Source: Hormoscilla sp.
GTDB lineage: Bacteria; Cyanobacteriota; Cyanobacteriia; Cyanobacteriales; Desertifilaceae
Direction: 5' to 3'
Assembly (NCBI GenBank): GCA_051439505.1
Contig: JBFRWI010000060.1
Location: 1 to 33,515 of the forward strand
Length of the DNA stretch: 33,515 bases
The translations under genes and the position numbers were made by a program. Below the pieces are notes generated by a model, which saw only the letters and a program-made list of their open reading frames with translations, searched no databases and was not told where the DNA came from. Each line of letters opens with the position of its first letter. Position 1 is the stretch's first letter. Positions 1,817-33,515 of this stretch are shown piece by piece.

Positions 1817-2047
1817 ATCACACTACATCTGGGTGCAATTTAATTGCCAGAATATACAGAACTTTAATAAATTAGAGGGCCGACCCTTGACAAGCAGGTA
1901 GGATATGGTTATGATAGAAGTATAGGAAAAACCAGCCGCTTGCAGTGAGCGGAGTCGAACTGCCGGGCTCGTTGACAAGGAAAAAATGGCCGAGAGGAAG
2001 AAATGCAGGAGAAAAGAGTAGAAAAAGAATTAAAAAAGGGGAAAACC

Positions 2048-4426
2048 ATGAATTTATTAGAGTGGAACCCGGAGGAGACGGTAAATCTGACTAATTGCGA
2101 TCGCGAACCGATCCATATTCCGGGCCACATTCAGCCCCACGGCATCCTGTTTGTCCTCTCGGAACCTGACCTGCGGATCGAGCAAGTCAGCAACACGACA
2201 ACGGCGATCCTCGGCATCCCCCCCCAGGAAATGCTGGGACAACGCCTAAAAACCTGGATGTCACCCGCAACAATGGCGAAAATTCCGCCAGCACTAGCAA
2301 CAGCAGGGGATTTTGCCCACCTCAACCCCCTGAAGGCGGAACTGCAAATCTCTCAAAAGGTTTTGACATTTAATGGCATCGTTCACCGATCGCCACAGGA
2401 CAAGATAATCCTGGAACTAGAACCACGCACCTTTTCCGAAGAGAATCCCTTTTTCCAGTTTTACAAACTTACTAAGGGAATCCTCGGGCAGATGCAACGG
2501 GCAACTAACCTCACGGAACTATGCCATCTGACAGTGGCAGAAGTGCGAAAACTTACCGGGTTCGATCGGGTGATGATCTATAGGTTTGCCCCGGATGGTT
2601 CTGGTGAGGTCATTGCCGAAGACAAACTGGCAGAAATAGAACCATATTTAGGACTGCATTATCCAGACACGGACATTCCCAAACAGGCAAAACATCTCTA
2701 TTGCTTCAACTGGTTGCGGTTGATTCCCGATGTGGACTACCAACCCGCCGCCCCCATCCTCATGGCATCCCCAGAGGAAACAGCAGTGGCAGAGACAGCA
2801 GTATTTTCTCCGTCAAGTCTCGACCTGAGTTATACGGTTCTCCGTAGCGTTTCTAGCATTCACATTGAGTACCTGAAAAATATGGGCGTCGGGGCCTCCA
2901 TGTCTATCTCTCTACAGAAGGAAGGTAAACTCTGGGGCCTGATTGCTTGTCACCACCTCACCCCCCGCTTTGTTTCCTACGAAATTCGCACGGTCTGCGA
3001 GTTCTTAGGACAGGTGATGTCTCTGGAATTGACATCCAAAGAGGAAAGGGAAAACCAGTCTGAGAAAATTAGTCTGAAGAAGATCCAGACTAAGTTTGTC
3101 GATCGCCTCTCTGCTGCTGATAATTTACTCGATGCCTTAGTGGGCACCGAAGAAGATCGGGCGACATTGCTAGAACTGGTAAATGCTGAAGGTGCCGTTG
3201 TTTGTCTCGATGGGGATTTTACCTACATCGGCAAAACCCCTAACTCAGCAGAGATTCGCGACCTGCTAGTTGGCTTAGAAGACAAATTCCAGCAGCATTT
3301 GTTCGTTACCGATCGCCTGCCCCACCTGTATCCCCAGGCAGCAGAATTTCAAGAAGTAGCTAGCGGACTGTTAGCACTTGAGATCGCCAAGGTGCAGCAA
3401 AACTATATACTCTGGTTTCGTCCGGAGATTCTGCAACAAGTTACCTGGGCAGGGAACCCCAACAAAAACAAGCGCCTGGAAGAAGATGGCACCGTGACTC
3501 TCTCGCCTCGCGAGTCCTTTGCCCAATGGCAGGAGACGGTCTATCAAACATCTCTGAACTGGCAACCCTGGGAAATTGAAGGGGCCGTGGAACTCCGCAG
3601 CGCGATCGTCAGCATTATGCTGCGCAAAGCTGAAGAAATGACTGCCATTAACCGGGAACTAGAACGTAGCAATATCGAACTAGATGCCTTTGCCTATATC
3701 GCCTCCCACGACCTCAAGGAACCCCTGCGCGGCATTCACAATTACTCCACCTTTCTGTTAGAAGACTATAGCAATGTTCTGGATGCAGAGGGAGTTGATA
3801 AACTGGAGACCCTGGTGCGCCTGACTAAGCGCATGGAAGACCTGATCGAGTCTCTGCTGCATTTTTCTCGCCTGGGACGACAGGATTTGAATTTGCAATT
3901 CCTCGACTTGAATGCTTTAGTCAAAAATGTTATGGAAGTGATATCCATGAGTAAGGTAGAGGAGAACGTCGAAGTTCGCATTCCTCGTCCCCTGCCTCAA
4001 GTATGGGGCGATCGGGTGATGATTGAAGAACTGCTAACGAACCTAATTGGCAATGCAATAAAATACAACAATAGAGCAGAAAAATGGGTGGAAATTGGCT
4101 ATAAAGATGAGAGAGAATCCTTACCCCCAGTCAACTATAACTCAGAAGGACATTATTGGCAAAGCTTTTACATTCGGGATAACGGCATCGGCATCCGAGA
4201 AAAACACCTGGATAGTATATTCCGCATCTTCAAACGGTTGCACGGTCAAAATAAGTATGGTGGCGGTACTGGGGCCGGGTTAACCATTGTCAAGAAAATT
4301 GTCGAACGTCATGGTGGTAAGATTAGAGTCGAGTCAGTTTACGGTGAAGGCAGCACATTTTATTTCACATTACCCCAAAAAAAAGATGAATCAAAAAAAC
4401 AAAATAATTCTAGTTGTAGAAGATAG
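2048..4426 (+). CDS. cphB: Bacteriophytochrome-type (CphB/AphB-like) PAS-GAF-PHY histidine kinase
   Basis: N-terminal LTNCDREPIHIPGHIQPHG carries the biliverdin-binding Cys. GAF has the DIP motif (DTDIP) and LRSVSSIHIEYL, lacking the Cph1-type Cys. PHY tongue LSPRESF; H-box SHDLKEPLR; HATPase G boxes. ATG at 2048 follows AAGGGG (ORF-track start is 2003). Confidence 0.92.
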   Translation: MNLLEWNPEETVNLTNCDREPIHIPGHIQPHGILFVLSEPDLRIEQVSNTTTAILGIPPQEMLGQRLKTWMSPATMAKIPPALATAGDFAHLNPLKAELQISQKVLTFNGIVHRSPQDKIILELEPRTFSEENPFFQFYKLTKGILGQMQRATNLTELCHLTVAEVRKLTGFDRVMIYRFAPDGSGEVIAEDKLAEIEPYLGLHYPDTDIPKQAKHLYCFNWLRLIPDVDYQPAAPILMASPEETAVAETAVFSPSSLDLSYTVLRSVSSIHIEYLKNMGVGASMSISLQKEGKLWGLIACHHLTPRFVSYEIRTVCEFLGQVMSLELTSKEERENQSEKISLKKIQTKFVDRLSAADNLLDALVGTEEDRATLLELVNAEGAVVCLDGDFTYIGKTPNSAEIRDLLVGLEDKFQQHLFVTDRLPHLYPQAAEFQEVASGLLALEIAKVQQNYILWFRPEILQQVTWAGNPNKNKRLEEDGTVTLSPRESFAQWQETVYQTSLNWQPWEIEGAVELRSAIVSIMLRKAEEMTAINRELERSNIELDAFAYIASHDLKEPLRGIHNYSTFLLEDYSNVLDAEGVDKLETLVRLTKRMEDLIESLLHFSRLGRQDLNLQFLDLNALVKNVMEVISMSKVEENVEVRIPRPLPQVWGDRVMIEELLTNLIGNAIKYNNRAEKWVEIGYKDERESLPPVNYNSEGHYWQSFYIRDNGIGIREKHLDSIFRIFKRLHGQNKYGGGTGAGLTIVKKIVERHGGKIRVESVYGEGSTFYFTLPQKKDESKKQNNSSCRR

Positions 4427-4841
4427 CGACGAAGATTTTACTGCCTTCACCCGGATAATGCAGGAATTGGACAGTCCTCACCAAATTACTCGTGTTGAGG
4501 ATGGGGATGAGGTACTCGACTATCTCTACCACGAAGGTGCTTATGCTGACCCCAAGACTGCTCCCCGTCCTGCTATTATTTTGATGGACTTAAATCTGCC
4601 GGGAACCGATGGACGAGAAGTTATCCAACAAGTCAAGCAGGACGATCGCCTCAAAGATATTCCGATCGTCGCTTTTACTACATCCTCTAAGGCCAGAGAT
4701 ATTGAAGATTGTTACAACTATGGAGTCAATAGTTACATGCTTAAACCCATGGGAGTTACCCTGTTGAGGGAAACCATTCGAGAATTGTTTGATTACTGGT
4801 TTAAATATGCTGTCCTGCCTAGCGAACGGGATCAAATTTGA
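4386..4841 (+). CDS. rcpB: Phytochrome-cognate single-domain response regulator (Rcp/RcpB-like)
   Basis: MNQKNKIILVVEDS...RPAIILMDLNLPGTDG...FTTS...NSYMLKP...YWF, typical of phytochrome-associated regulators. Overlaps the phytochrome 3' end by 41 nt. Confidence 0.88.
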   Translation: MNQKNKIILVVEDSDEDFTAFTRIMQELDSPHQITRVEDGDEVLDYLYHEGAYADPKTAPRPAIILMDLNLPGTDGREVIQQVKQDDRLKDIPIVAFTTSSKARDIEDCYNYGVNSYMLKPMGVTLLRETIRELFDYWFKYAVLPSERDQI

Positions 4842-4861
4842 ACAATTGAGATTAGCCTCAT

Positions 4862-5074
4862 GGCCCGCCGGGGGTTAAAAGATGCTGTGGGCGAATTACC
4901 AGATCATACGCTATAAGCAGGGAGCAGGGAGCAGGGAGCAGGGAGAGGGGAGAGGGGTGAAATCATTGATTTCTCGTGGTTGGGGAGAATTGGGGGGTGG
5001 AACCCCCCAGTTAATTACCCCACAGTATCTTAAAACCCAAGGGCTTTTAGCTAAAGTGGGTTAAAACCCACTAG
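4862..5074 (-). repeat. REP-like double-hairpin unit (family A), interrupted by MITE-1
   Basis: With the insert removed it reads ggcccgccgggggttaaaacccaagggcttttagctaaagtgggttaaaacccactag, a near reverse complement of 6036-6092. Confidence 0.85.
4880..5030. mobile_element. MITE-1 copy 1 (151 bp, imperfect 19-bp TIRs, 4-bp TSD TAAA)
   Basis: Ends agatgctgtgggcgaatta / taattaccccacagtatct (16/19 inverted match). TAAA at 4876-4879 and 5031-5034. Internal (AGCAGGG)x4. Confidence 0.85.
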
Positions 5075-5140
5075 ATGTCTTGTCTATTTAGTAGGCTTGT
5101 CAGCCCTGGAAACAGAATAGCTAGCCCGCAGGCCAGCTAA

Positions 5141-5214
5141 AATATTTGGCTTCGTTATTCCGGGCGATCGCGCGAAACTGTTTGTTATCATATTGGGGAG
5201 GGGAGAATAAAGAT
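5141..5214 (+). repeat. 74-bp direct repeat, copy 1 (duplicate of the transposase leader)
   Basis: 73/74 identical to 5476-5549. Confidence 0.9.
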
Positions 5215-5304
5215 GATATCAATTGATGTTGAGCGAGAATGAGGTTCAAACCCCTTAGCTGCGCTGTTATCGCCGGTGGTAAAAACATCTTCGCTGCGCT
5301 GTTA

Positions 5305-5360
5305 GCCCGCCGTGGGTTAAAACCCACGGCTAATAGCTAAAGTGGGTTAAAACCCACTAA
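5305..5360 (-). repeat. REP-like unit (family A), uninterrupted
   Basis: gccgtgggttaaaacccacggc and agtgggttaaaacccact hairpins separated by taatagctaa. Confidence 0.85.
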
Positions 5361-5386
5361 AAGCATTATCAGATGCGCGTTTTACC

Positions 5387-5436
5387 CTCGTTTCCACAGG
5401 CGACCCCTGGGAACGCGCGGCGCGAGGCGGAGCCTC
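5387..5436. repeat. REP-like unit (family B)
   Basis: ctcgtttccacaggcgacccctgggaacg...gaggcggagcctc resembles gaggcagagcctc...ctcgttcccaggctccgcctgggaacgag at about 14310-14357. Confidence 0.65.
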
Positions 5437-5475
5437 AGTTGCGACTGGTGCAAGATATGAGTTAAAATCGACGAC

Positions 5476-5549
5476 AATATTTGGCTTCGTTATTCCGGGC
5501 GATCGCGCGAAAATGTTTGTTATCATATTGGGGAGGGGAGAATAAAGAT
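5476..5549 (+). repeat. 74-bp direct repeat, copy 2; contains the purine-rich RBS of the transposase
   Basis: Ends GGGGAGGGGAGAATAAAGAT, one base before the ATG at 5551. Confidence 0.9.
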
Positions 5550-5550
5550 T

Positions 5551-5997
5551 ATGGCTTTATGGCGACTATATTATCATCTGGTTTGGGCAACCAAGCAGCG
5601 TCAGCCTCTGATCGATCCCAAGCAAGAACCGGAACTTTACAATTATATAATTGGTAAAGCTGACTCCCTCAATTGTATTGCCCATGTGATCGTTGGGATA
5701 GAAGATCATATTCATTTGGTGGTTTCTATACCTCCCAAGCTATCTATAGCGGATTTTGTCAAAAACATCAAAGGAAGCAGTGCCTATCATATGAATCATT
5801 TGGATCCAGGACCGAAAAAATTTGCCTGGCAAGACGGCTATGGTGTGTTTTCTATGGGAACGCAACAACTGGATACGGCGATCGCCTACGTGCAAAAGCA
5901 GAAAGAACATCATTCTCAAGGGACGGAAATAGCATCTTTAGAAAAAATGACCCATCTAGACGATCGCCCACAGCGCCAGGGGTTTAACTTCCATTAA
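5551..5997 (+). CDS. tnpA: IS200/IS605-family Y1 HUH transposase, probably REP-associated (RAYT/TnpA-REP-like)
   Basis: YHLVWATKQR, HUH motif DHIHL, KNIKGSS, WQDGY, catalytic Y..KQKEHH. No tnpB. Flanked by inverted REP-like units. Confidence 0.9.
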   Translation: MALWRLYYHLVWATKQRQPLIDPKQEPELYNYIIGKADSLNCIAHVIVGIEDHIHLVVSIPPKLSIADFVKNIKGSSAYHMNHLDPGPKKFAWQDGYGVFSMGTQQLDTAIAYVQKQKEHHSQGTEIASLEKMTHLDDRPQRQGFNFH

Positions 5998-6035
5998 TTA
6001 CCATCAAAGGTAAACAACTCCCTCAGAAAAAATCT

Positions 6036-6099
6036 CTAGTCGGTTTTAACCGACTTCAGCTATTAGCCGGGGGTTTGAACCCCCGGCGGGCCAGGAGAC
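6036..6099 (+). repeat. REP-like unit (family A), uninterrupted; shows the empty target site of MITE-1
   Basis: ctagtcggttttaaccgact-tcagctatta-gccgggggtttgaacccccggc-gggccaggagac. Confidence 0.88.
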
Positions 6100-6130
6100 G
6101 AATTGACTGTAGTTTTTGAGGCTATTATTA

Positions 6131-9100
6131 ATGACAAATCCCATCACAGTTATGATAGTTGAGGACTCCCCAGAAGACCGGGACATGTACCGCCGGTTTC
6201 TAACTAGGGACAACCCCAACAGGTATAAAATCTTAGAATTTGAGTCTGGTTCTGAGGCAATTGACTGGTGCTTGCATTCCTGTCCCGTTAACGAAACTCC
6301 GCCCGACCTGATCCTGTTGGACTACAATTTGCCGGATATGAATGGACTGGAGTTTATGCTGGAACTCAATTTAGAGCAAAAGAATAACTGTAGCAACTGG
6401 CATCGTCAGATTCCAGTCATCTTGCTGACGGGACAGGGAAGTGAAGAAATTGCCGTCCAGGCAATGAAAATGGGAGCTGAAGACTACCTGGTTAAAGGTC
6501 AACTTACCCGGGAGAAACTGTGCAGTGTCATCAACATAGTGCTGAAGCAGATGGCGGTACAGTATGAACTTCAGCAAGCAGAAAAGCAGCAGCAGTTAGT
6601 GGCCAGCACGGCCTTGAAAATTCGCCAGTCGGTCAAGTTAGAAACAGTGTTGCAAATCACGGTGTCGGAAGTGCAGCAGTTACTCCAGGCAGACCGAGTC
6701 CTAGTTTACCGGTTCAACCCGAATATGAGCGGTAAAATTGTTGCTGAAGCAGTGGTCCCTCCCTGGACTAGCTGCTTGCATTTTGATTTTGAAGATACTT
6801 GTTTTCCCAAAAATATTCGAGGTGAATATCGGGAAGGTAAGAAGTGGGTGGTGCCCGATATTTACAAAGCTTCCTTGACTGATTGCCATTTGGAAATGCT
6901 CTCACAGTTTGAAGTTAAGGCGATTTTAGTAGTGCCGATCGTGGTGCAAGATGACAATAATTCAGATCGCCTTTGGGGGTTACTGATTTCCCACCAATGT
7001 TCCGGACCTCACCAATGGGAAGCTTGGGAAGTGGAGACGATCGAGCAACTGGCGGTGCAGATAGAAATCGCGGTTCAACAGGCGGAACTTTATAAAAAAC
7101 TGGAAAATAAAGTTGCGGAAAACAGGGAGGCCCTAGCAGCGCGAAAACTGGTGGAAGCTCAATTACGTAAAAGTGAAGCACATTTAGCAGCCGCTCTGCG
7201 TATTGCTAATGTTGGCAGTTGGGAATTTAACCTGCTAACTAGGTCCATTAGTTTGTCAGCCGAAACCTTGAGAATTTTCGGGCGCAACCCGAACCAGGGC
7301 GCACCTACCTACAAACAATTGCGCCAATACCTGCACCCGATGGACCGCTCTCGCCACGATCGAGCTGTCAAGCAGGCAGCGGAAAAGGGACAACCCTACG
7401 CGATCGAATTTCGCTTTCATCGGGATGATGGCAGTTTGGGTTACGCCCAGACCCGGGGAGAAGTAATTAGGGATGCTAGGGGAAACCCAGTGCAATTGTT
7501 GGGCACGGTCCTGGATATTACTAATCTCAAACAGACGTCCCAACAACTGCAAGCCCTTTCCGATCGCCTGAGTTTGGCAGTCAAGTCAGGGGCGATCGGG
7601 ATCTGGGAATGGGATGTTCTGTCCGAAGAACTGATCTGGGACGATCGCATGTACGAACTGTATGGGATGGGTAAAGGTGATTTTACTCCAACATATCAGG
7701 GATGGTTGCAGTGCTTGCATCCAGACGATCGGGGTGAAGCTGATGCCGCAATTCAAAAAGCTTTGGCAGGTGAAAAAGAATTCGATACCGAGTTTAGAGT
7801 TGTTCACCCCAATGGTACCGTGAGATTTTTGAAAGCTTACGGTACCATCAAGTATAATGGGCAAAGGGAACTCCAAGGGATGATTGGCATCAAGTTCGAT
7901 ATCAGCGATCGCAAGGAAAGGGAAACCCAACTACGCCAGACCAACGAACAATTGACTCGTGTCAATGACGAACTGGCCCGGGCCACCCGCCTGAAAGACG
8001 AATTTCTGGCGAACATGTCTCACGAACTGCGCACTCCCCTGAATGCCATTCTCGGCCTGTCCGAGGGTTTGCAAGAGCAAGTGTTCGGGACGTTGAACGA
8101 TCGGCAGCTCCAGACAATAGGTACAATCGATCGCAGTGGCAAGCATCTGCTAGAATTGATTAACGATATCCTCGACCTCTCGAAAATCGAGTCGGGGAAA
8201 ATGGAACTGGAAATTACGGAGGTGACGGTTAAGTATCTCTGCGAGAACAGCATGACTTTCGTGCGGCAAATGGCAAAGAAAAAAAACATCCATCTTAGCA
8301 GTCGCATTGGCGACAGATTAGACAGTATCCAGTTGGACGAACGGCGCATGCGCCAGTTATTGATCAATTTGCTTTCCAATGGGGTAAAATTTACGCCATC
8401 GGGTGGGTCTGTAATTTTAGAAGTCCAGTTAGAAACAAATGAAAATTCGTCATCGGAACCAGTGGTAGCTTTCTCTGTACGGGACACTGGTATAGGTATT
8501 GCTAAGGAAAACATGGACAAGGTGTTTGCAACCTTCGTGCAAATTGACAGCAGTCTTAACCGTCATCATGCGGGGACTGGTCTGGGACTGGCCCTGGTTA
8601 AACGCATTGCGGAACTACATGGAGGGTGGGTGTCGGTGGAAAGTGAGTTAGGTAAGGGTAGTTGTTTTACCGTGGGCATTCCCTACCGTTCTGACAAGGA
8701 ATTGACTGATGGTTTATCACCAGAAACTCAGGAGATGGTTTCTCTACCATCGACAAAGGAATTCCCAGAGGTGCGAAAAAATCCTTATATCCTGCTAGCA
8801 GAGGACAATGAGGCCAACGTTATCACCATCTCCAGCTATCTAGAAAATCGCGGTTATCGGATAATTGTTGCCAAAAATGGCAGGGAATCCCTTGACATAG
8901 CCACAAGAGAAATGCTAGACTTGATTTTGATGGACATTCAAATGCCGGAAATAGACGGACTGGAGGCCATTCGACAGATTCGTAGCCAACCCCAACTGGC
9001 AGATATCCCCATCATTGCCCTGACGGCCCTGGCCATGGCCAGCGATCGGGCCAAATGTCTAGAAGCGGGGGCCAATGAATACATGGCGAAACCCTTGCAG

Positions 9101-9145
9101 TTAAAGCAACTAGCAAATCAGATTCAGCAGTTGACCAAGAGATAA
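6131..9145 (+). CDS. Hybrid sensor kinase REC-GAF(DXCF cyanobacteriochrome)-PAS-PAS-HisKA-HATPase-REC
   Basis: N-terminal REC (LLDYNLP); GAF with EDTCF and DCHLEML; two PAS_3 (HPMDR, HPDDR); SHELRTPL; G boxes; C-terminal REC (LMDIQMP). Confidence 0.9.
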   Translation: MTNPITVMIVEDSPEDRDMYRRFLTRDNPNRYKILEFESGSEAIDWCLHSCPVNETPPDLILLDYNLPDMNGLEFMLELNLEQKNNCSNWHRQIPVILLTGQGSEEIAVQAMKMGAEDYLVKGQLTREKLCSVINIVLKQMAVQYELQQAEKQQQLVASTALKIRQSVKLETVLQITVSEVQQLLQADRVLVYRFNPNMSGKIVAEAVVPPWTSCLHFDFEDTCFPKNIRGEYREGKKWVVPDIYKASLTDCHLEMLSQFEVKAILVVPIVVQDDNNSDRLWGLLISHQCSGPHQWEAWEVETIEQLAVQIEIAVQQAELYKKLENKVAENREALAARKLVEAQLRKSEAHLAAALRIANVGSWEFNLLTRSISLSAETLRIFGRNPNQGAPTYKQLRQYLHPMDRSRHDRAVKQAAEKGQPYAIEFRFHRDDGSLGYAQTRGEVIRDARGNPVQLLGTVLDITNLKQTSQQLQALSDRLSLAVKSGAIGIWEWDVLSEELIWDDRMYELYGMGKGDFTPTYQGWLQCLHPDDRGEADAAIQKALAGEKEFDTEFRVVHPNGTVRFLKAYGTIKYNGQRELQGMIGIKFDISDRKERETQLRQTNEQLTRVNDELARATRLKDEFLANMSHELRTPLNAILGLSEGLQEQVFGTLNDRQLQTIGTIDRSGKHLLELINDILDLSKIESGKMELEITEVTVKYLCENSMTFVRQMAKKKNIHLSSRIGDRLDSIQLDERRMRQLLINLLSNGVKFTPSGGSVILEVQLETNENSSSEPVVAFSVRDTGIGIAKENMDKVFATFVQIDSSLNRHHAGTGLGLALVKRIAELHGGWVSVESELGKGSCFTVGIPYRSDKELTDGLSPETQEMVSLPSTKEFPEVRKNPYILLAEDNEANVITISSYLENRGYRIIVAKNGRESLDIATREMLDLILMDIQMPEIDGLEAIRQIRSQPQLADIPIIALTALAMASDRAKCLEAGANEYMAKPLQLKQLANQIQQLTKR

Positions 9146-12622: not shown

Positions 12623-12672
12623 AGGGTAGGGGTTTTAGGGTAGGGGTTTTAGGGTAGGGGTTTTAGGGTAGG
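12623..12672 (+). repeat. 14-bp tandem repeat (AGGGTAGGGGTTTT)x3.5
   Basis: Read directly; lies just downstream of the icd stop. Confidence 0.92.
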
Positions 12673-14205: not shown

Positions 14206-14526
14206 GTGGGCGGTGGTCTTGCACCAGCTGGTAGTACCACACCCGCTCATTGTGGGCGGTGGTCTTGCGCCAGTTGGTAGTACCTCAGATCTTGCACCAT
14301 TCTCAACTAGAGGCAGAGCCTCTGGAACTCGTTCCCAGGCTCCGCCTGGGAACGAGGGGAAAAAATACTTTATTTATAAGGTAGAGAGTCGGTTTTCAAC
14401 CGACACAAAGCCGAGTTACCTGGCTCCCGCCTGGTAACTCGGGGGTTTGAACCCACGGCGGGCCAGGGGGCCGATCGACAATGGTGCGGCCCACCCAAAG
14501 AGATGCAACTAATGCATGACCACACC
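14206..14526. repeat. Mosaic cluster of REP-like palindromes and MITE ends
   Basis: 33-bp direct repeats at 14206 and 14252; ctcagatcttgcacc at 14284; family B hairpins at about 14310-14357; family A unit at about 14386-14466; MITE-2-type right end at 14506-14526. Confidence 0.8.
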
Positions 14527-14538
14527 GTCTTCGAGGTG

Positions 14539-14966
14539 TTACGGGGCCACTGCGGCGGGCGATCGGCCTGTCCTACTCCTTTGGGGCGAGTATAATTCCA
14601 GGAAATCTGGCACAGAGTATACAGTCGGTAAAGTATCCACCACACAGGGCATACTCGATCGAACTTCCTAACAAATTCCGCTGCCAAAATCTCGCTTTGG
14701 ACATTTTTCCCAATATCCAGGAGTATTTCCGTCTGGGGGGTACTTCCCAGTTTCGGGATAATGTTTTTGATTTTCGCTTCTAGTTCCGAACCTGACAACT
14801 CTTCTTCTGGATCGTACATTACCCAGAAATACCCATTATCATTGTATAGCTGTCCATCATATATATTATCTGGATCTTCACTGTAGTTACCGATAATTTC
14901 GACGAAATGCATAATTTCAGACTTGACAATAGTTATGCTGGTAACTAAAACAATTGTTTTAAGCAT
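14539..14966 (-). pseudogene. Putative immunity protein paralog 2, frameshifted near 14650
   Basis: MLKTIVLV...IYDGQLYN...YDPEEELSGSELEAKIK...LAAEFV. Adding 1 nt near 14650 gives ...PCVVDTLPTVYSVPDFL..., matching paralog 1, with TAA at 14539-14541. The 198-aa ORF-track tail is off-frame. Confidence 0.7.
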
Positions 14967-14997
14967 TTAATTACTTCCGTTATTTTAGATCTTTCTG

Positions 14998-15425
14998 TTA
15001 TTTCTGCTGTCCTGCTACTAGATGAGCGATCTGGGGGAGCCATACTTTCATAAATTCCGGTACAGAGTAGACGATAGAATCATCATCCTCCACTACACAG
15101 GACCATATTTGAGAGCACTTGCTGACAAATTCCGCTGCCAAAAAATCCCACTTGAAAAATTTTTGCCTATATCGATGAGGATCTGTGTTTGCGGCGGACT
15201 TCCCAGTTTTTCAGTAATGCTTTTAATTCTCGCTTCTAGTTCCGACCCTGATAACTCTTCTTCTGGATTGTACTTAATCCATAGATAGCCACCTGTATGA
15301 TTATGTAGCTGTCCATCATATACCCTATCCTCATTGGAAATGTCCGCTCCCATTGTTTGGAGAAACTGCATAAATTCAGAATGTGCAATTAGCTTACTCG
15401 CCACCAAAACAATTGTTCTCAGCAT
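14998..15425 (-). pseudogene. Putative immunity protein paralog 1, frameshifted in a T6 run (15140-15145)
   Basis: MLRTIVLV...VYDGQLHN...YNPEEELSGSELEARIK. The paralog has T4 at this site; correction gives LAAEFVSKCSQIWSCVVEDDDSIVYSVPEFM..., with TAA at 14998-15000. Confidence 0.7.
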
Positions 15426-16166: not shown

Positions 16167-18374
16167 TTAGATGAAAGTATTGCTAGTTCCGGACTCAGAC
16201 AAAGCCAGAGTACCAGCTAGATCGAAGGATTGCAAAAAGCCTGTAATTTCAGCAACAGTATTGCGGGTAGCATCTAAGGCAACAGCGCCGCTAATTAGAG
16301 AATCCCCGGTAAAGCCAAACAAATAACGGACAATCAAAATGCCATCAGTCAGGGCATCTGCTATGCCATTGCCATCTACATCCAGCATAGTGGTAAGCCC
16401 GCCCTCTAAGTAAGCAGCAATTGCCTCGGAACTGGCGCGACTGGCCCCAAGGCCGAGCGCATTATTAATCAGAGGCAAGTCTCTCAACCCGAAGAGATAG
16501 CGGATCGCCAAAGATCCATCTGTCAGGGCATCTGTTATCCCATTCCCATCAATGTCTAGATTAATCTCCTCGTTCTCTGAGTTGACGATGATGTTGACAG
16601 TAGCTGTGTCCGTACTGCCCAGGGCGTCGCTGATAGTATAGACGAAGCTATCTGCACCAGTAAATCCAGAGTCCGGGCTGTACAGCAGTCGGTCATCAGT
16701 CAAGTCATTTCTGGTGCCATTATCATCCCGACTGACAGTACCATTAGAAGCAGAACCAAAGTCAGTCAAGCAGATCGGGTCTCCATCTGCATTGGTATCG
16801 TTAGCCAGCACCTCAATGGTAATAGCTGTGTCTGCATCAGTAATGGTCCTGTCCGAGTTAGCCACAGGGGCCGAGTTAGCCACAGGAGTATTATTCTGGA
16901 GGTCCGTACTCCCGAAGATGACATAGCTTTGGGCGGGATTATTGTTAGTTTCTAGGCCATCGATAATCAGGTCATCTATCCCATCACCATTGATATCTCC
17001 AGCACCGCTGACAGAGATGCCTATATTGTTACCAGTAGACAGAGAGTCGATCGCGAAGCCATTGCTACCGTTTAGTTCATCCAGGTTTATGCTAGAAGCA
17101 AACCCCCCATCATTACCAAATAGCACATAGTTCAATCCACTGGATGTGCCACAGACATGAGTTCCTGGCGCACCGATAATCAAATCAGAAATGCCATCGC
17201 CGTTAATATCTCCGGCACCGCTAACCGAGGCTCCCACGCGGTCTCCTGGGGATATTCCTGCGATCGCGAAACCATTACTGCCGTTTAGTTCATCCAGGTT
17301 TATGCTCGCAGAAAATCCGCCATCACTGCCAAACACCACATAGCTTGAGCCACTTAAATCGCCATTTAGGTCAGCCCCTGGCGCACCGATAATCAGGTCA
17401 TCTATGCCATCGCCGTTAATATCTCCGGCATCGCTGACCGACAATCCCGCGCCCTCCCCACTTACTCCCCCATGCAGGGCGAACCCGTTGCTGCCGTTTA
17501 GTTCATCCAGGTTTATGCTAGAAGCAAATCCGCCATCACTGCCAAATACCACATAGCTAGAACCGGTTGAGGATCCACCTACATCAGCCCCTGGCGCACC
17601 GATAATCAGGTCATCTATGCCATCGCCGTTAATATCTCCAGCATTGCTGACTGACGTGCCCGTGTCGTCCTCGGCAGAAATCCCGTTCAGGGCGAAACCA
17701 TTGCTACCGTTTAGTTCTGATAGGTTAATACTGGCTGCTTCTTGGACATCACTGCCAAATACCACATAGCTAGTACCCATATAATTTGCAGTTATTGGTA
17801 CGCCGATAATTACATCATCTAAGCCATCCCCATTAATATCCCCCGCACCGCTGACTGCACTGCCTGAAAAGTTGTATGCATTGGCCCCGTCGATCGCGAA
17901 ACCATTGCTGCCGTTTAGCTCATCCAGGTTTATGCTGGCAGAAAATCCCTCATCACTGCCAAACACCACATAGCTCGATCCTGAAAATATGTCATTTGAG
18001 CCTGCCAATGGTGCCCCAATTATCAGGTCGTCTATACCATCCCCGTTGATATCTCCCGCGCCACTAACTGAACTCCCGGAAAAGTTATACGTACTTATGC
18101 CGTTGAGGATAAAGCCATTACTGCCGTTTAGTTCTGACAGGTTTATGCTAGCTGCCAATCGGCTATTCGAGCCAAAAACTACATATGTTTTCCCAGAGAA
18201 GCTGCCATTTGTCGATGCTGCTGGTGCCCCGATAATCAGGTCATCTATGCCATCCCCGTTGATATCCCCGGCACTCGTACTTATCAAGTTTGAGTTATCA
18301 TTCTCATCAAGCACCCTCATGACCACGCCGTTGTTGCCGTCTAGGTTTGAGAGGTTGAACGATAATCTTGCCAT
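16167..18374 (-). CDS. FG-GAP (integrin-alpha-like) repeat protein with cadherin/Ig-like domain and C-terminal paired DxDGNG motifs
   Basis: Seven GDINGDGxDDxIIG repeats; APVANSD...VLAND...FTGADSFVYTISD domain; two LD(I/V)DGNG..DALTDG motifs. No obvious signal peptide. Confidence 0.9.
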   Translation of the reverse strand: MARLSFNLSNLDGNNGVVMRVLDENDNSNLISTSAGDINGDGIDDLIIGAPAASTNGSFSGKTYVVFGSNSRLAASINLSELNGSNGFILNGISTYNFSGSSVSGAGDINGDGIDDLIIGAPLAGSNDIFSGSSYVVFGSDEGFSASINLDELNGSNGFAIDGANAYNFSGSAVSGAGDINGDGLDDVIIGVPITANYMGTSYVVFGSDVQEAASINLSELNGSNGFALNGISAEDDTGTSVSNAGDINGDGIDDLIIGAPGADVGGSSTGSSYVVFGSDGGFASSINLDELNGSNGFALHGGVSGEGAGLSVSDAGDINGDGIDDLIIGAPGADLNGDLSGSSYVVFGSDGGFSASINLDELNGSNGFAIAGISPGDRVGASVSGAGDINGDGISDLIIGAPGTHVCGTSSGLNYVLFGNDGGFASSINLDELNGSNGFAIDSLSTGNNIGISVSGAGDINGDGIDDLIIDGLETNNNPAQSYVIFGSTDLQNNTPVANSAPVANSDRTITDADTAITIEVLANDTNADGDPICLTDFGSASNGTVSRDDNGTRNDLTDDRLLYSPDSGFTGADSFVYTISDALGSTDTATVNIIVNSENEEINLDIDGNGITDALTDGSLAIRYLFGLRDLPLINNALGLGASRASSEAIAAYLEGGLTTMLDVDGNGIADALTDGILIVRYLFGFTGDSLISGAVALDATRNTVAEITGFLQSFDLAGTLALSESGTSNTFI

Positions 18375-22506: not shown

Positions 22507-22884
22507 TCAACAATAAACTGCATCTAGCTTTCGGGCGATCGCCTGCATGAATTGCGTGTAACTTCCCTTCTTGTTTACATAATCATTATCACTTAAATCC
22601 ATCGATTGACTGCTATTTCCCTGGTCTGATTTCGATGTTAGGAAAATGAAAGGAGTATTTTTTAGACTTGCATCTTCGCGGATAATATGGAGCAGGCCAT
22701 AGCCATTGAGATTAGGCATGTTAATGTCACACAGGATCAGGTCAGGATGTAGATGTTTGGCTAACTGCAAGCCAACCAATCCATCTTCAGCACCAATGAC
22801 ATTAAACTCTTCTGCTTCTAGCATTTCGCACAAATCATTCCGCAGCATTTGCTCCTCTTCGATCAACAAAATTATTGGACTCAT
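22507..22884 (-). CDS. Single-domain response regulator (atypical), tandem paralog
   Basis: LILCDINMP, PFIFLTS; acidic pocket IEEE; no KP motif (DYVNKK). Confidence 0.85.
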   Translation of the reverse strand: MSPIILLIEEEQMLRNDLCEMLEAEEFNVIGAEDGLVGLQLAKHLHPDLILCDINMPNLNGYGLLHIIREDASLKNTPFIFLTSKSDQGNSSQSMDLSDNDYVNKKGSYTQFMQAIARKLDAVYC

Positions 22885-22928
22885 GCTTCTCTTCTCCTTG
22901 AGTTTATTCTCCTGTTTTCCTCAGCTAT

Positions 22929-23309
22929 TCACTGTGTCCTAACTGCATCTATTTGCTGGGCGATCGCCTGCAATAATCTCGTGAGCTTTCCGCCCTTCTT
23001 GACATAATCGTTAGCTCCTAACTCCATCGCTTGAGAGCGATTTGCCGGGTCCGATCTAGATGTCATAAAAATGAACGGAGTCTTTGCTGTAGTCGCCTCG
23101 GAGCGGATAATATGGAGCAGGCCATAGCCATTGATATTGGGCATATTAATGTCACACAGGATCAGATCTGGCTGTAGATGTTTCGCTAACTGTAAGCCAA
23201 CCCAGCCATCTTCAGCACCAATGACATTAAAGTTTTTTAATCCTAGCACTTTGCTCAAACCCGAACGCAGCAGATCATTAGCTTCTATTAACAAAATTGT
23301 TGTCCTCAT
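22929..23309 (-). CDS. Single-domain response regulator (atypical), tandem paralog
   Basis: MRTTILLIEAND...LILCDINMP...PFIFMTS...DYVKKG; same AAGGAGAAGAGAAGC leader as its paralog. Confidence 0.85.
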   Translation of the reverse strand: MRTTILLIEANDLLRSGLSKVLGLKNFNVIGAEDGWVGLQLAKHLQPDLILCDINMPNINGYGLLHIIRSEATTAKTPFIFMTSRSDPANRSQAMELGANDYVKKGGKLTRLLQAIAQQIDAVRTQ

Positions 23310-23659
23310 GCTTCTCTTCTCCTTTATATTATTCTCCTGCGTTCGGTTCTTCACTGTGTCCTGGAGCACTTTCCCTCCGACGATCGTTGATGGCGGATAT
23401 CGATAAGCGCTATCTGTAGATATGTAGTATACCCTCAGCTAATGTGGTACTGCAAATTGCCTACATCATCAGGGTTGAGCGCGTTTTTTCTGTATTACAC
23501 GTAAGAGAGCAACTGCTATAACTTATCTAGCTACAGTTCTAACTTAGAGAATAATTGTGAGGATTTTGTGAGCTGAGCGAAAAAATTTTCAGCACTATTT
23601 TGGCAAGGCCAACCGGACGACGATCGGATACCACCGGTTCCGAGAAAGAAGTAGCAAGC

Positions 23660-30653: not shown

Positions 30654-30725
30654 CGATCTATTCCTCTCTTCTTTCTCCCTCTCCCTCCATTATACTCTAT
30701 CCTTCCCACTCTGACAACCCTTTTG

Positions 30726-30823
30726 GCTAATTGCTAATTGCTAATGGGTAATTGCTAATTGCTAATGGCTAATGGCTAATTGCTAATGGCTAATTGCTAA
30801 TTGCTAATTGCTAATTGCTAATT
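30726..30823. repeat. Heptamer tandem repeat (GCTAATK)x14, STRR-like
   Basis: 14 consecutive units, one variant (ggtaatt). Confidence 0.93.
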
Positions 30824-30845
30824 GTTCATCGTTCATGATTATTCA

Positions 30846-32483
30846 CTATTCACTATTCGCAAGTAAAGGAGCCGCTTGCAGCAGAGTTTGAGTGTAAGGA
30901 TGCTGAGGGTTAGTAAAGATATCGGTAGTGGAACCGAGTTCGACAATTTTACCTTGGTTCATCACGGCAATGCGATCACACAGAAACCTGGCCACCCAGA
31001 GGTCGTGAGTAATAAACAGATAAGTAAGGTCAAAATCCCGTTTGAGTTCTAACATTAAATCTAGCACTTGGGACTGGACGCTGGCATCTAGCATGCTGAC
31101 CGGTTCGTCGCAGATCAGCAGTTGCGGACGGGTAATTAAAGCCCGGGCGATCGCGACTCGTTGCTGCTGTCCCCCAGACAACTCACCCGGATATCTGTAA
31201 TAATAATCAGCAGTTGGAGTTAACCCGACTCTTTCTAACATGGACATTACTTGTGCTTTAGCATCACCTTGAGTAGCCAACTTGTGAATAAACAGCGGAT
31301 CTGCTATACTTTGTCCTACAGTCATCAAGGGATTTAGACAAGCATGGGGGTCTTGAAACACCATTTGCATTTGTCGGCGCCACCCCCGCAGACTGCGAGG
31401 TGAAGCTTTCGTTAAATTTTCTCCCAGAAACTCCACCTTGCCAGCGGTGGGGCGCACAAGCTGTAAAATGCTGCGAGATAGGGTACTTTTGCCGCAACCA
31501 GATTCTCCGACTAATCCCAGAATCTCCCCAGGATATAATTCTAAGCTGACTCCATCCACTGCTTTAATTATGGGAGTGTTTTTTCTAAACAGCTGTTCGA
31601 CAAAATTGCCTTCCAAGGTATAATGCTGCTGTAAGTCGGTAACCCGCAGTAGAGGCGAATTGTCAGTTTTGACTTCTGATATTTTATCCTCGAGGGCTTG
31701 AATGTGGAGTGCAGCTTGTAGGAGCGATCGGGTATAGTCATGTGTGGGATGTTGCAGCACCTGTTGCGTAGTTCCCATTTCCACGATCTCACCGCCATAC
31801 ATGACCGCAATGCGATCGCAGTATTCTCCGATCATAGCCAGATCGTGGGAAATTAACAGCAGCGCCAGGGTCCGTTCTTGACAGAGGCGCGTCAGTTCCT
31901 GGAGAATTTGTGCCGCTACCGTCACGTCCAAGCTAGTAGTGGGTTCGTCGGCGACAATTATTTTTGGGTTCAGCACCAATGCTAGGGCGATCGCCACCCG
32001 CTGTCGCATCCCACCACTAAACTCGTGAGGATACTGTCCCCAGCGATCAGCAGAAATATTTACCGCTTCTAAAGTAGAAATTGCTCTTTGCTTTGCTTCA
32101 CGGCGCGAAAGTTGCGGTTCGTGCGATCGCAGAGTTTCCAGACAATGTTCCCCGATCGTCATCAAAGGATCCAGACGAGTCATGGGGTCTTGAAACACCA
32201 GGGCCACAGCTTCTCCGCGAAAGCGGCGCAACAGTTTTGGAGAAAGATCGAACACCGACTCCCCCGCAAAAGTTACCCGTCCCTCCAGGCGAGAACCAGT
32301 GGGTAAAAGTCGCATCACCCCACGTCCCAGAGTAGACTTACCACAACCAGATTCTCCCACCAAACCCAATTTTTCTCCAGGTTTGAGAGTAAAAGAGACA
32401 TCATCCACCGCCCAACTAGCTGTTCCGTGAAGTTGGGGATAAGCGACTCGCAGATTTTCCACAGAAAGTAGGACTTCACTCAT
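30846..32483 (-). CDS. ABC transporter ATP-binding protein with two ATPase domains (peptide/nickel family)
   Basis: Two GESGCGKST Walker A motifs; FSGGMRQR and [12 protein letters not shown] and DEPV; HPYT. Confidence 0.95.
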
Positions 32484-32513: not shown

Positions 32514-32697
32514 GGCCCGCCGGGGGTTTGAAGATGCTGTGGGCGAATTACGAGATCTCCGCGTTTGGGAGTAGGGAGTGGGGAGTGGGGAGTGGGGAGA
32601 AAGTCCCGGAGTGGTGGGGGTGGGGGAGATTTGGGGGGTTTCACCCCCCAGTTAATTGCCCCACAGTATCTTTGAACCCCCGGCGGGCCAGGAGACC
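32514..32697. repeat. REP-like palindrome (family A), interrupted by MITE-1
   Basis: ggcccgccgggggt-TTGA-[insert]-TTGA-acccccggcgggcc-aggagac; the right part is identical to the end of the 6036-6099 unit. Confidence 0.88.
32532..32671. mobile_element. MITE-1 copy 2 (140 bp, 4-bp TSD TTGA)
   Basis: Ends agatgctgtgggcgaatta / taattgccccacagtatct. TTGA at 32528-32531 and 32672-32675. Internal (GGGAGTR)x4. Confidence 0.87.
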
Positions 32698-32827
32698 AAC
32701 CTCCAATAGTGCAAGATCGCAAGTGTAAATTGTATCGCAGGATACAATTTATGGCAAGAAAACAGGCTGAAAGCCTATATTTGGCGGATATATAAGTTTT
32801 ACTTATCACCCAAACCCAAGGAGACAG

Positions 32828-33252: not shown

Positions 33253-33380
33253 TCACAGGGGTATTTGGTTTGTTTGAGGGGGTGAGGGGGTAGTGAGGGG
33301 GTGAGGGGGTATAAAAGTCAATCAACATGGCTCTCTAATAGACAATTATGACAAAAAGCCGCTCCCTCAAGGGAAAAATT

Positions 33381-33515
33381 TCTTTTCTCGCCGATCGAAG
33401 GATCTTTTCTCGCCGATCGAAGGATCTTTTCTCGCCGATCGAAGGATCTTTTCTCGCCGATCGAAGGATCTTTTCTCGCCGATCGAAGGATCTTTTCTCG
33501 CCGATCGAAGGATCT
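33381..33515. repeat. Perfect 22-bp tandem repeat (TCTTTTCTCGCCGATCGAAGGA), at least 6 copies, runs off the window
   Basis: Six identical units plus a partial one; no spacers. Confidence 0.95.

Follow-up and report, generated by a model that had tools for sequence, protein, structure and literature searches.

Miniature elements with IS1182-type ends in the loops of REP-like hairpins in Hormoscilla

What places a short element without genes into the loop of a repeated DNA hairpin, twice on the same contig and each time with the loop duplicated? The question is raised by a 33,515-nucleotide stretch of a Hormoscilla sp. assembly (GCA_051439505.1, contig JBFRWI010000060.1, positions 1 to 33,515; hereafter the window), in which a reading of the sequence alone had noted two elements with inverted ends in hairpin tips, all features of which are indeed present in the sequence. 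On the basis of genome comparison, we consider it very probable that both are gene-less MITEs with IS1182-type ends, lodged in the loop of a REP-like hairpin and likely placed there in trans by an IS1182 DDE transposase.

Two miniature elements and their boundaries

MITE copy 1 occupies positions 4881 to 5029 (149 bp, forward strand), is free of ORFs, and has imperfect TIRs starting with GAT; its interior contains a short purine-rich tandem repeat, and its right end carries an internal G6/C6 hairpin. It is bordered by identical copies of TTAAAA, the 4-nt loop plus its closing pair, at 4875 to 4880 and 5030 to 5035, and it interrupts a double-hairpin repeat, A1, between the left arm (4862 to 4874) and a decayed right arm followed by the linker and the second hairpin (5036 to 5073), all on the forward strand. 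MITE copy 2 (32533 to 32670, forward strand, 138 bp, likewise ORF-free) has the end type of copy 1 and belongs to another interior lineage, with 68 of 93 aligned interior bases identical between the two. Its duplication is TTTGAA, at 32527 to 32532 and 32671 to 32676, and around it, on the same strand, lie the left (32514 to 32526) and right (32677 to 32689) arms of a symmetric A1 variant that is present in empty form on contigs C83, C135 and C166 of the window's own assembly (G000; 93% complete, 232 contigs). Empty versions of both loops within the window, also part of the earlier account, are confirmed at 5305 to 5360 and 6037 to 6099. Both elements are short, non-coding and bounded by TIRs and a target duplication, further copies are dispersed and have filled and empty sites, and both are confirmed as real MITEs.

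The sequence-only reading had described a 19-bp TIR with a 4-bp target duplication, which requires correction by one base at each end, as both window elements run from GAT to ATC and the duplication is 6 bp. In the window copies the 4-bp and 6-bp readings give an identical empty site, so that the decision falls to other copies. Wherever the repeat is exact (51 sites), the bases next to GAT and ATC on the outer side are part of the duplication. We rejected an element ending in A...T with a 4-bp duplication: its outer bases change from target to target, and at 16 of the 51 exact-repeat sites they are not complementary to each other. Moreover, the 4-bp reading is excluded by the duplications TTAGAT (contig C196) and ACGCAA (locus L137) and by the 7-mers at insertions in the hairpin family that we call C, and full-length IS1182 relatives likewise start at GAT.

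Chance does not account for the end pattern, which matches G000 exactly at 15 places, against none for a reversed control. G000 has 11 complete elements, one of which (on contig C147) is diverged, and about six single ends. With one mismatch allowed, the exact left-end pattern is found in 6 of 41 genomes, namely G000, all four congeners (G001 to G004) and G015, and a species-level genome scan returned 64 stretches, mostly from Hormoscilla and some from Symploca, Caldora and others; most, not all, of the end hits in the four congeners were retrieved. Merging orthologous insertions reduced 86 elements to 77 sites, 66 of them within the genus (five genomes), a merge that is imperfect in that L190 is possibly the same site as L030. 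Left out before the 66 sites were counted were a 1,772-bp false pairing, a duplicate pairing (L199) and elements from other genera. An exact duplication is present at 51 of the 66 sites, and measures 6 bp at 35, 7 bp at 15 and 9 bp at one.

Some observations stand beside these counts. A 231-bp copy in G000 (C121:10671-10901) contains about 100 bp of another high-copy repeat, an extra layer of nesting, and the same repeat family occurs at about 32722 to 32825 of the window. Related MITEs of 205-215 bp with 6-bp duplications are found in Symploca, Caldora and other cyanobacteria (L118, L126, L129, L138, L147, L166, L152, L021); several of them adjoin an A1-type linker motif, so that the pairing reaches beyond the genus. 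Elsewhere in the window are tandemly duplicated gene pairs at 22507 to 23369 and 14370 to 15425 (about 79% alike over 300 bp and about 77% over 150 bp), intergenic short tandem repeats with periods of 7, 14 and 22 bp (30703 to 30830, 12623 to 12672 and 33359 to 33512), and, at 16167 to 18374, a gene for a 735-aa protein built of 71-residue repeats (213-bp period), which by eye we take to resemble the FG-GAP/integrin type.

A probable IS1182 partner in a congener

The window elements were originally proposed to be non-autonomous. The proposal is supported: the elements are ORF-free and share their ends with an IS1182 element of the congener G001. That genome holds four intact copies, 1,867-1,868 bp long, in which perfect GAT-type ends enclose an ORF of 553 aa; its product scores 324 bits against the IS1182 model NF033551 (cut-off 270) and contains DUF772 and DDE_Tnp_1_6 domains. 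The intact elements have a subterminal hairpin as in the MITEs; when one of their ends (L052) is compared with the window copies, 23 of 27 bases agree at the right ends and 16 of 18 at the left ends, the subterminal G6/C6 hairpin being common to the intact end and both window right ends. Over the first 18 bases, the intact elements and the window ends differ at 2-4 positions. Full IS1182 elements duplicate 6-7 bp, and four of their six sites lie in one hairpin family, B. These resemblances between ends make a strong case for assigning the MITEs to the IS1182 family, and the window copies were likely moved in trans by a DDE transposase of that family. The Y1 transposase encoded beside copy 1 is not their mobiliser.

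The search for a full-length IS with the same TIRs, suggested by the earlier reading, has thus met with partial success, in that a closely matching IS1182 element exists in G001 but the exact end variant of the window (G at position 9) was not found. It was absent from full-length elements among the 64 stretches of the species-level scan, and it was not found in 23 metagenome relatives, being absent in the 16 for which paired ends were listed. Neither tblastn nor profile searches of G000 (93% complete, 232 contigs) found an IS1182 transposase. In a set of 401 class-level genomes, the end pattern was hit once or twice in 15 others, and none of 16 loci checked had IS1182 sequence within about 1.5 kb. 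One intact IS1182 type only was found in the genus, together with relics of more distant paralogues (52-64% identity) in G002 and G003. Most of the metagenomic relatives (50-57% identity) start with GAT; by eye, three have 6-bp duplications, and several without a duplication lie between palindrome arms, as with IS1272. At one locus of G003 (L077, contig C94), a MITE abuts the end of a truncated IS1182 copy within the same B-type repeat.

Hairpin families, end variants and independent insertion

Across the five genomes of the genus, 51 of the 66 insertion sites lie in one of four hairpin families, for which we coined the labels A1, A2, B and C, and 13 of these are in A1, the double-hairpin repeat of the window; A2 is a poly-C/poly-G hairpin. 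The remaining 15 sites are outside the four families, several of them lacking any hairpin. In G000 the families have 280 (A1), 158 (A2), 73 (B) and 158 (C) copies. The prediction that most copies would be flanked by REP arms with a 4-bp duplication did not hold for that genome, where three of the 11 complete copies are in A1, five are in any recognised family, and the duplication is 6 bp. What remains of the proposed REP-loop targeting is that a hairpin loop is hit and duplicated; the element has a wider target range than this REP, which holds 13 of the 30 sites with its end type.

Targets are instead sorted by end variant. G-type ends, those of the window, account for 30 sites (13 in A1, 10 in A2, 7 elsewhere), GATT ends, which include the full IS, for 9 sites in B and 5 elsewhere, and GATR/T ends for 18 sites in C, one in B and 3 elsewhere. 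End type and target family agree at 50 of 51 sites, the best of 100,000 shuffles reaching 34, a concordance that is overstated: both the end types and the target patterns were set with the data already in view, kin genomes and clonal bursts are non-independent, the flanks supplied the label at about 10 of the 51 sites, which have no exact duplication, and two labels were generous (L103 as A2 and C51 as B; 49 of 49 without both). Duplication length follows end type as well, with 6 bp at 25 of 26 exact-repeat sites of the G type and 7 bp at 13 of 15 GATR/T sites. The midpoint of the duplication falls on the hairpin axis at most sites in A1 (10 of 13), C (11 of 12) and B (4 of 6).

Could the hairpin be incidental, and G-type elements simply choose a primary sequence, TTNNAA in G/C runs? 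This consensus is present at most G-type sites, and the idea draws further support from A2, where the duplication is 0.5-1 base off axis at 7 of 9 sites, from the second hairpin of A1, which despite 253 copies with similar loops received none of the 13 insertions (binomial p ~3e-4), from the orientation bias in A1 (12 of 13 insertions in one orientation, the left end beside the same arm) and from several stemless sites. The empty second hairpin and the off-axis cuts in A2 do indicate that structure alone is insufficient for the choice of site. We nevertheless regard targeting by sequence with an incidental hairpin as unlikely: the arms of A1 (G-run first) and A2 (C-run first) are opposite, yet both are used; sister types cut other 6- and 7-mers, also at hairpin axes; a stem of at least 8 pairs accompanies 3.5% of sampled TTNNAA sites against 18 of 28 G-type sites (counted before final de-duplication); and metagenomic IS1182 relatives, too, lie between palindrome arms. 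In G000, A1 and A2 together account for 4.8% of the TTNNAA sites in non-coding DNA (by a crude ORF mask), and they hold 4 of the genome's 6 complete G-type copies (p ~7e-5 against that non-coding background) and 23 of 30 genus-wide. Base-pairing between element end and target as a guide was dropped by eye; type B has T-type ends and G-rich arms.

It also seems doubtful to us that one transposase serves all three end variants, the sorting being left by a few clonal bursts or by survival in neutral repeats. The genus did yield a single intact IS1182 type, several C-type copies are near-identical bursts within one genome, and insertions in intergenic repeats are tolerated. Against this, elements with the same end type and unrelated interiors enter the same repeat, while a shared interior enters another repeat when the end type differs; duplication length shifts with end type, the enrichment persists against a non-coding background, and distant IS1182 paralogues have left relics in G002 and G003. 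Under the reading with several enzymes, at least three IS1182 paralogues, each reading its own end variant, would have used different repeat families, with a stagger of 6 bp in A1 and A2, mostly 6 bp in B and 7 bp in C; of these proposed transposases, only the type B enzyme has been found.

That element and repeat are independent is indicated by comparison among genomes. We compared 56 insertions in other genomes with G000 by their flanks, and nine loci could be aligned on both sides. At four of the nine (L016, L103, L052, L054) G000 has an empty target, and the other five hold different repeats. L016 is a MITE in A1, for which the empty target shows one difference in the loop; L103 is also a MITE, and L052 and L054 are full IS, the empty target of L054 matching exactly. 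In G004, one A1 unit, upstream of the Y1 gene, is filled and has an empty counterpart; the 60 bases upstream of the two are the same throughout. Interior lineages are confined neither to a target family nor to an end type: over its last 59 bases the interior of copy 2 is identical to that of an element inserted in A2, and one lineage comprises both G-type copies in A1 and an element with GATR/T ends in target C (C2). Duplications in A1 are TTCAAA (8), TTAAAA (4) and TTTGAA (1), always identical on both sides. The earlier view that the window copies are independent insertions is borne out by their differing duplications and by interiors that cross targets, and the comparison of empty sites with relatives gave orthologous or twin empties for other copies but none for the two in the window. 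The genes flanking copy 1 (4000 to 4845 and 6130 to 7000) have no DNA match in G001 to G004; at the spot of copy 2, all four congeners have the upstream gene, lack the A1 repeat and the MITE and carry other repeats, and the right flank gave repeat matches only. The intergenic spot in front of this ABC gene (window positions 30846 to 32483 and its orthologues, L109-L112) carries a different set of palindromic repeats in each of the five genomes, a hotspot of fast repeat turnover.

That repeat and MITE form a single unit, founded by one or a few ancestral insertions and then multiplied by the Y1 transposase or by recombination, is very improbable and, as the main route, largely refuted, since the shared orientation of 12 of 13 A1 sites and the filled repeat just upstream of a homologous Y1 gene in both G000 and G004 are outweighed by three different duplications in A1, each identical on both sides, by the same interiors in A1, A2 and non-repeat targets, by empty orthologous and twin sites, and by copies near the Y1 gene that differ in their left interior between G000 and G004.

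How might independent insertion by an IS1182 enzyme proceed? DDE transposases perform staggered strand transfer, and gap repair then produces a target duplication. The IS1182 transposase would bind the MITE ends and excise the MITE, which would then be joined to a target extruded as a hairpin or cruciform, the staggered cuts spanning the loop; repair would copy the loop and its closing pair, giving the 6-bp duplication, and a sequence preference would be added to hairpin recognition. Such a route matches hypothetical pathway c, a loop-only duplication, in Fig. 13 of Wan et al. 2017 (PMC5678879). As described in PMC4923244 and PMC5678879, IS1272/TnSha1, of the IS1182 family, likewise pairs a DDE transposase with hairpin-forming targets; there, part of the stem-loop is deleted and no duplication arises, whereas here the loop is duplicated (6-7 bp; exact repeat at 51 of 66 sites), the targets are high-copy REP-like families, and the movers are mostly MITEs.

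The A1 repeat, its Y1 neighbour and known systems

Where does the target itself come from? A Y1 (HUH) transposase gene lies at 5551 to 5997 on the forward strand (148 aa; PF01797, 97 bits; NF033573, 88.9 bits with a cut-off of 55), between an empty A1 double hairpin upstream (5305 to 5360, forward strand, fold z = -6.8) and an inverted one downstream (6037 to 6099, reverse strand, fold z = -4.6); a further empty A1 hairpin is at 14440 to 14463 on the reverse strand. The suggestion that the target repeat is tied to a Y1 transposase accordingly finds support in the inverted repeats on both sides of the gene. With 280 copies in G000, 260 of them outside a crude ORF mask, and stable hairpins, A1 is a high-copy extragenic palindrome. 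Canonical REPs bear a terminal GTAG or CGTC tag, according to the description in PMC3733652; no constant foot of this kind was seen in the 70 of 280 A1 contexts inspected, and we therefore call A1 REP-like.

The motifs of the Y1 protein (DHIH, WQ, YVQKQKEHH) and its 148 aa fit TnpA-Y1 subclass 1.2, on a motif basis. It fails the RAYT model NF047646 (24.2 bits, cut-off 80) and lacks the Y---NP motif, while a single-copy gene between inverted, genome-abundant repeats is a RAYT-like feature; in G000 it gives a single tblastn hit with no close second copy, and three more distant Y1 matches. Table 1 of PMC6006769 lists subclass 1.2 as low-copy and cyanobacterial, and the window protein resembles it in its 148 aa, DH[IV]H, WQ and Y---Q--HH motifs, low copy number and cyanobacterial host; it differs in that its gene lies between inverted double-hairpin repeats of a family numbering about 280 in the genome, where the table's entry for REP is 'no'. 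Bertels' IS200 'Group 3', which the relevant part of PMC5581495 describes as unduplicated and tied to abundant 16-mers, may, at a guess, be the same as subclass 1.2.

Nine close Y1 homologues were considered besides the window's own and a distant one, three loci being unparsed; in each of the seven whose surroundings were covered, A1-like repeats adjoin the gene on one side or both, and such repeats also lie beside homologues in other families. At least six copies of the A1 linker motif are present in 10 of 10 genomes with a close Y1 homologue versus 8 of 31 without (Fisher p ~4e-5; 41 genomes), under a threshold set post hoc and with kin genomes that are non-independent; G002 and G003 have 57 and 50 linker copies, and a close Y1 homologue was not found in them. 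From this association, A1 was probably spread by the neighbouring subclass 1.2 Y1 transposase. The gene neighbourhood of Y1 differs among G000, G001 and G004, so the cassette of Y1 gene and repeats itself seems to be mobile. For families B, C and A2, no consistent adjacency to class 2 RAYT genes was seen at the 17 of 20 Y1 loci scanned.

Around the cassette, a 77-bp duplicate (5141 to 5217 and 5476 to 5552, 335 bp apart, 97% alike) has its second copy ending at the Y1 start codon; the upstream copy precedes no gene and resembles a remnant of a tandem duplication of the left part of the cassette. At L236 (G004:C13:155000-166000) and L244 a Y1 homologue lies between tandem arrays of 150-210-bp units, each with a repeat, and the G004 array has also been entered by an IS1-like gene (by eye) and a MITE. 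Genes for a phytochrome-like kinase, a response regulator and a hybrid kinase surround the window's cassette (2003 to 9145); two tested stretches of this cluster have no match in the four congeners, and it may be recently acquired or lost elsewhere.

Insertion into REPs has precedents. The passages of PMC1525189 on REP-targeting IS give a fixed insertion point for ISPsy8, ISRm22, ISPpu9/10 and ISPa11, at the symmetry axis for ISPsy8 and ISRm22, with 6-bp repeats on insertion of ISRm22; 'IS1182' and 'MITE' are absent from the main text of that paper. PMC3184786 cites IS1397, IS621 and, as a cyanobacterial case, Anabaena IS1594. These are autonomous elements, whereas those described here are mostly MITEs, and the passages treating them in the two papers do not describe sister elements that divide several REP families. 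Another known system is Nezha with its partner ISNpu3, a cyanobacterial MITE of 130-170 bp with filled and empty sites that shares TIRs with an IS that may survive only in related species; the likeness is one of description, and the account of Nezha in PMC3184786 states no REP-loop targeting. A search of openly accessible papers brought up none that treats IS1182 MITEs inserted in the REP loops of cyanobacteria, and none on end variants sorted among REP families. The nested system is nevertheless less new than the earlier reading suggested, since hairpin targeting by IS1182 elements was already published. The nesting of a MITE in a REP loop with an IS1182 partner is a clean case of known behaviour, mostly explained by family habit; what is added is the loop duplication, the way targets sort with the end variant and, for Y1 subclass 1.2, a partner repeat.

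Taken further, and tentatively, the pattern could reflect niche partitioning, in which sibling IS1182 transposases with ends 2-3 bases apart would each hold their own hairpin family, with a stagger (6 or 7 bp) fitted to its loop, and in which the largest niche would be the double-hairpin repeat spread by a subclass 1.2 Y1 enzyme, the A1 target being supplied by the adjoining gene.

The match between end variant, target family and duplication length offers a set of natural variants for how a DDE transposase reads a hairpin, and the MITE sites are real cases of a loop-duplication route until now only modelled for IS1272. Y1 subclass 1.2 had no settled function in 2018, and A1 is a candidate for its DNA substrate. 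If the partitioning of niches is true, this orphan subclass would gain a substrate and become a second, IS200-like disseminator of REPs.
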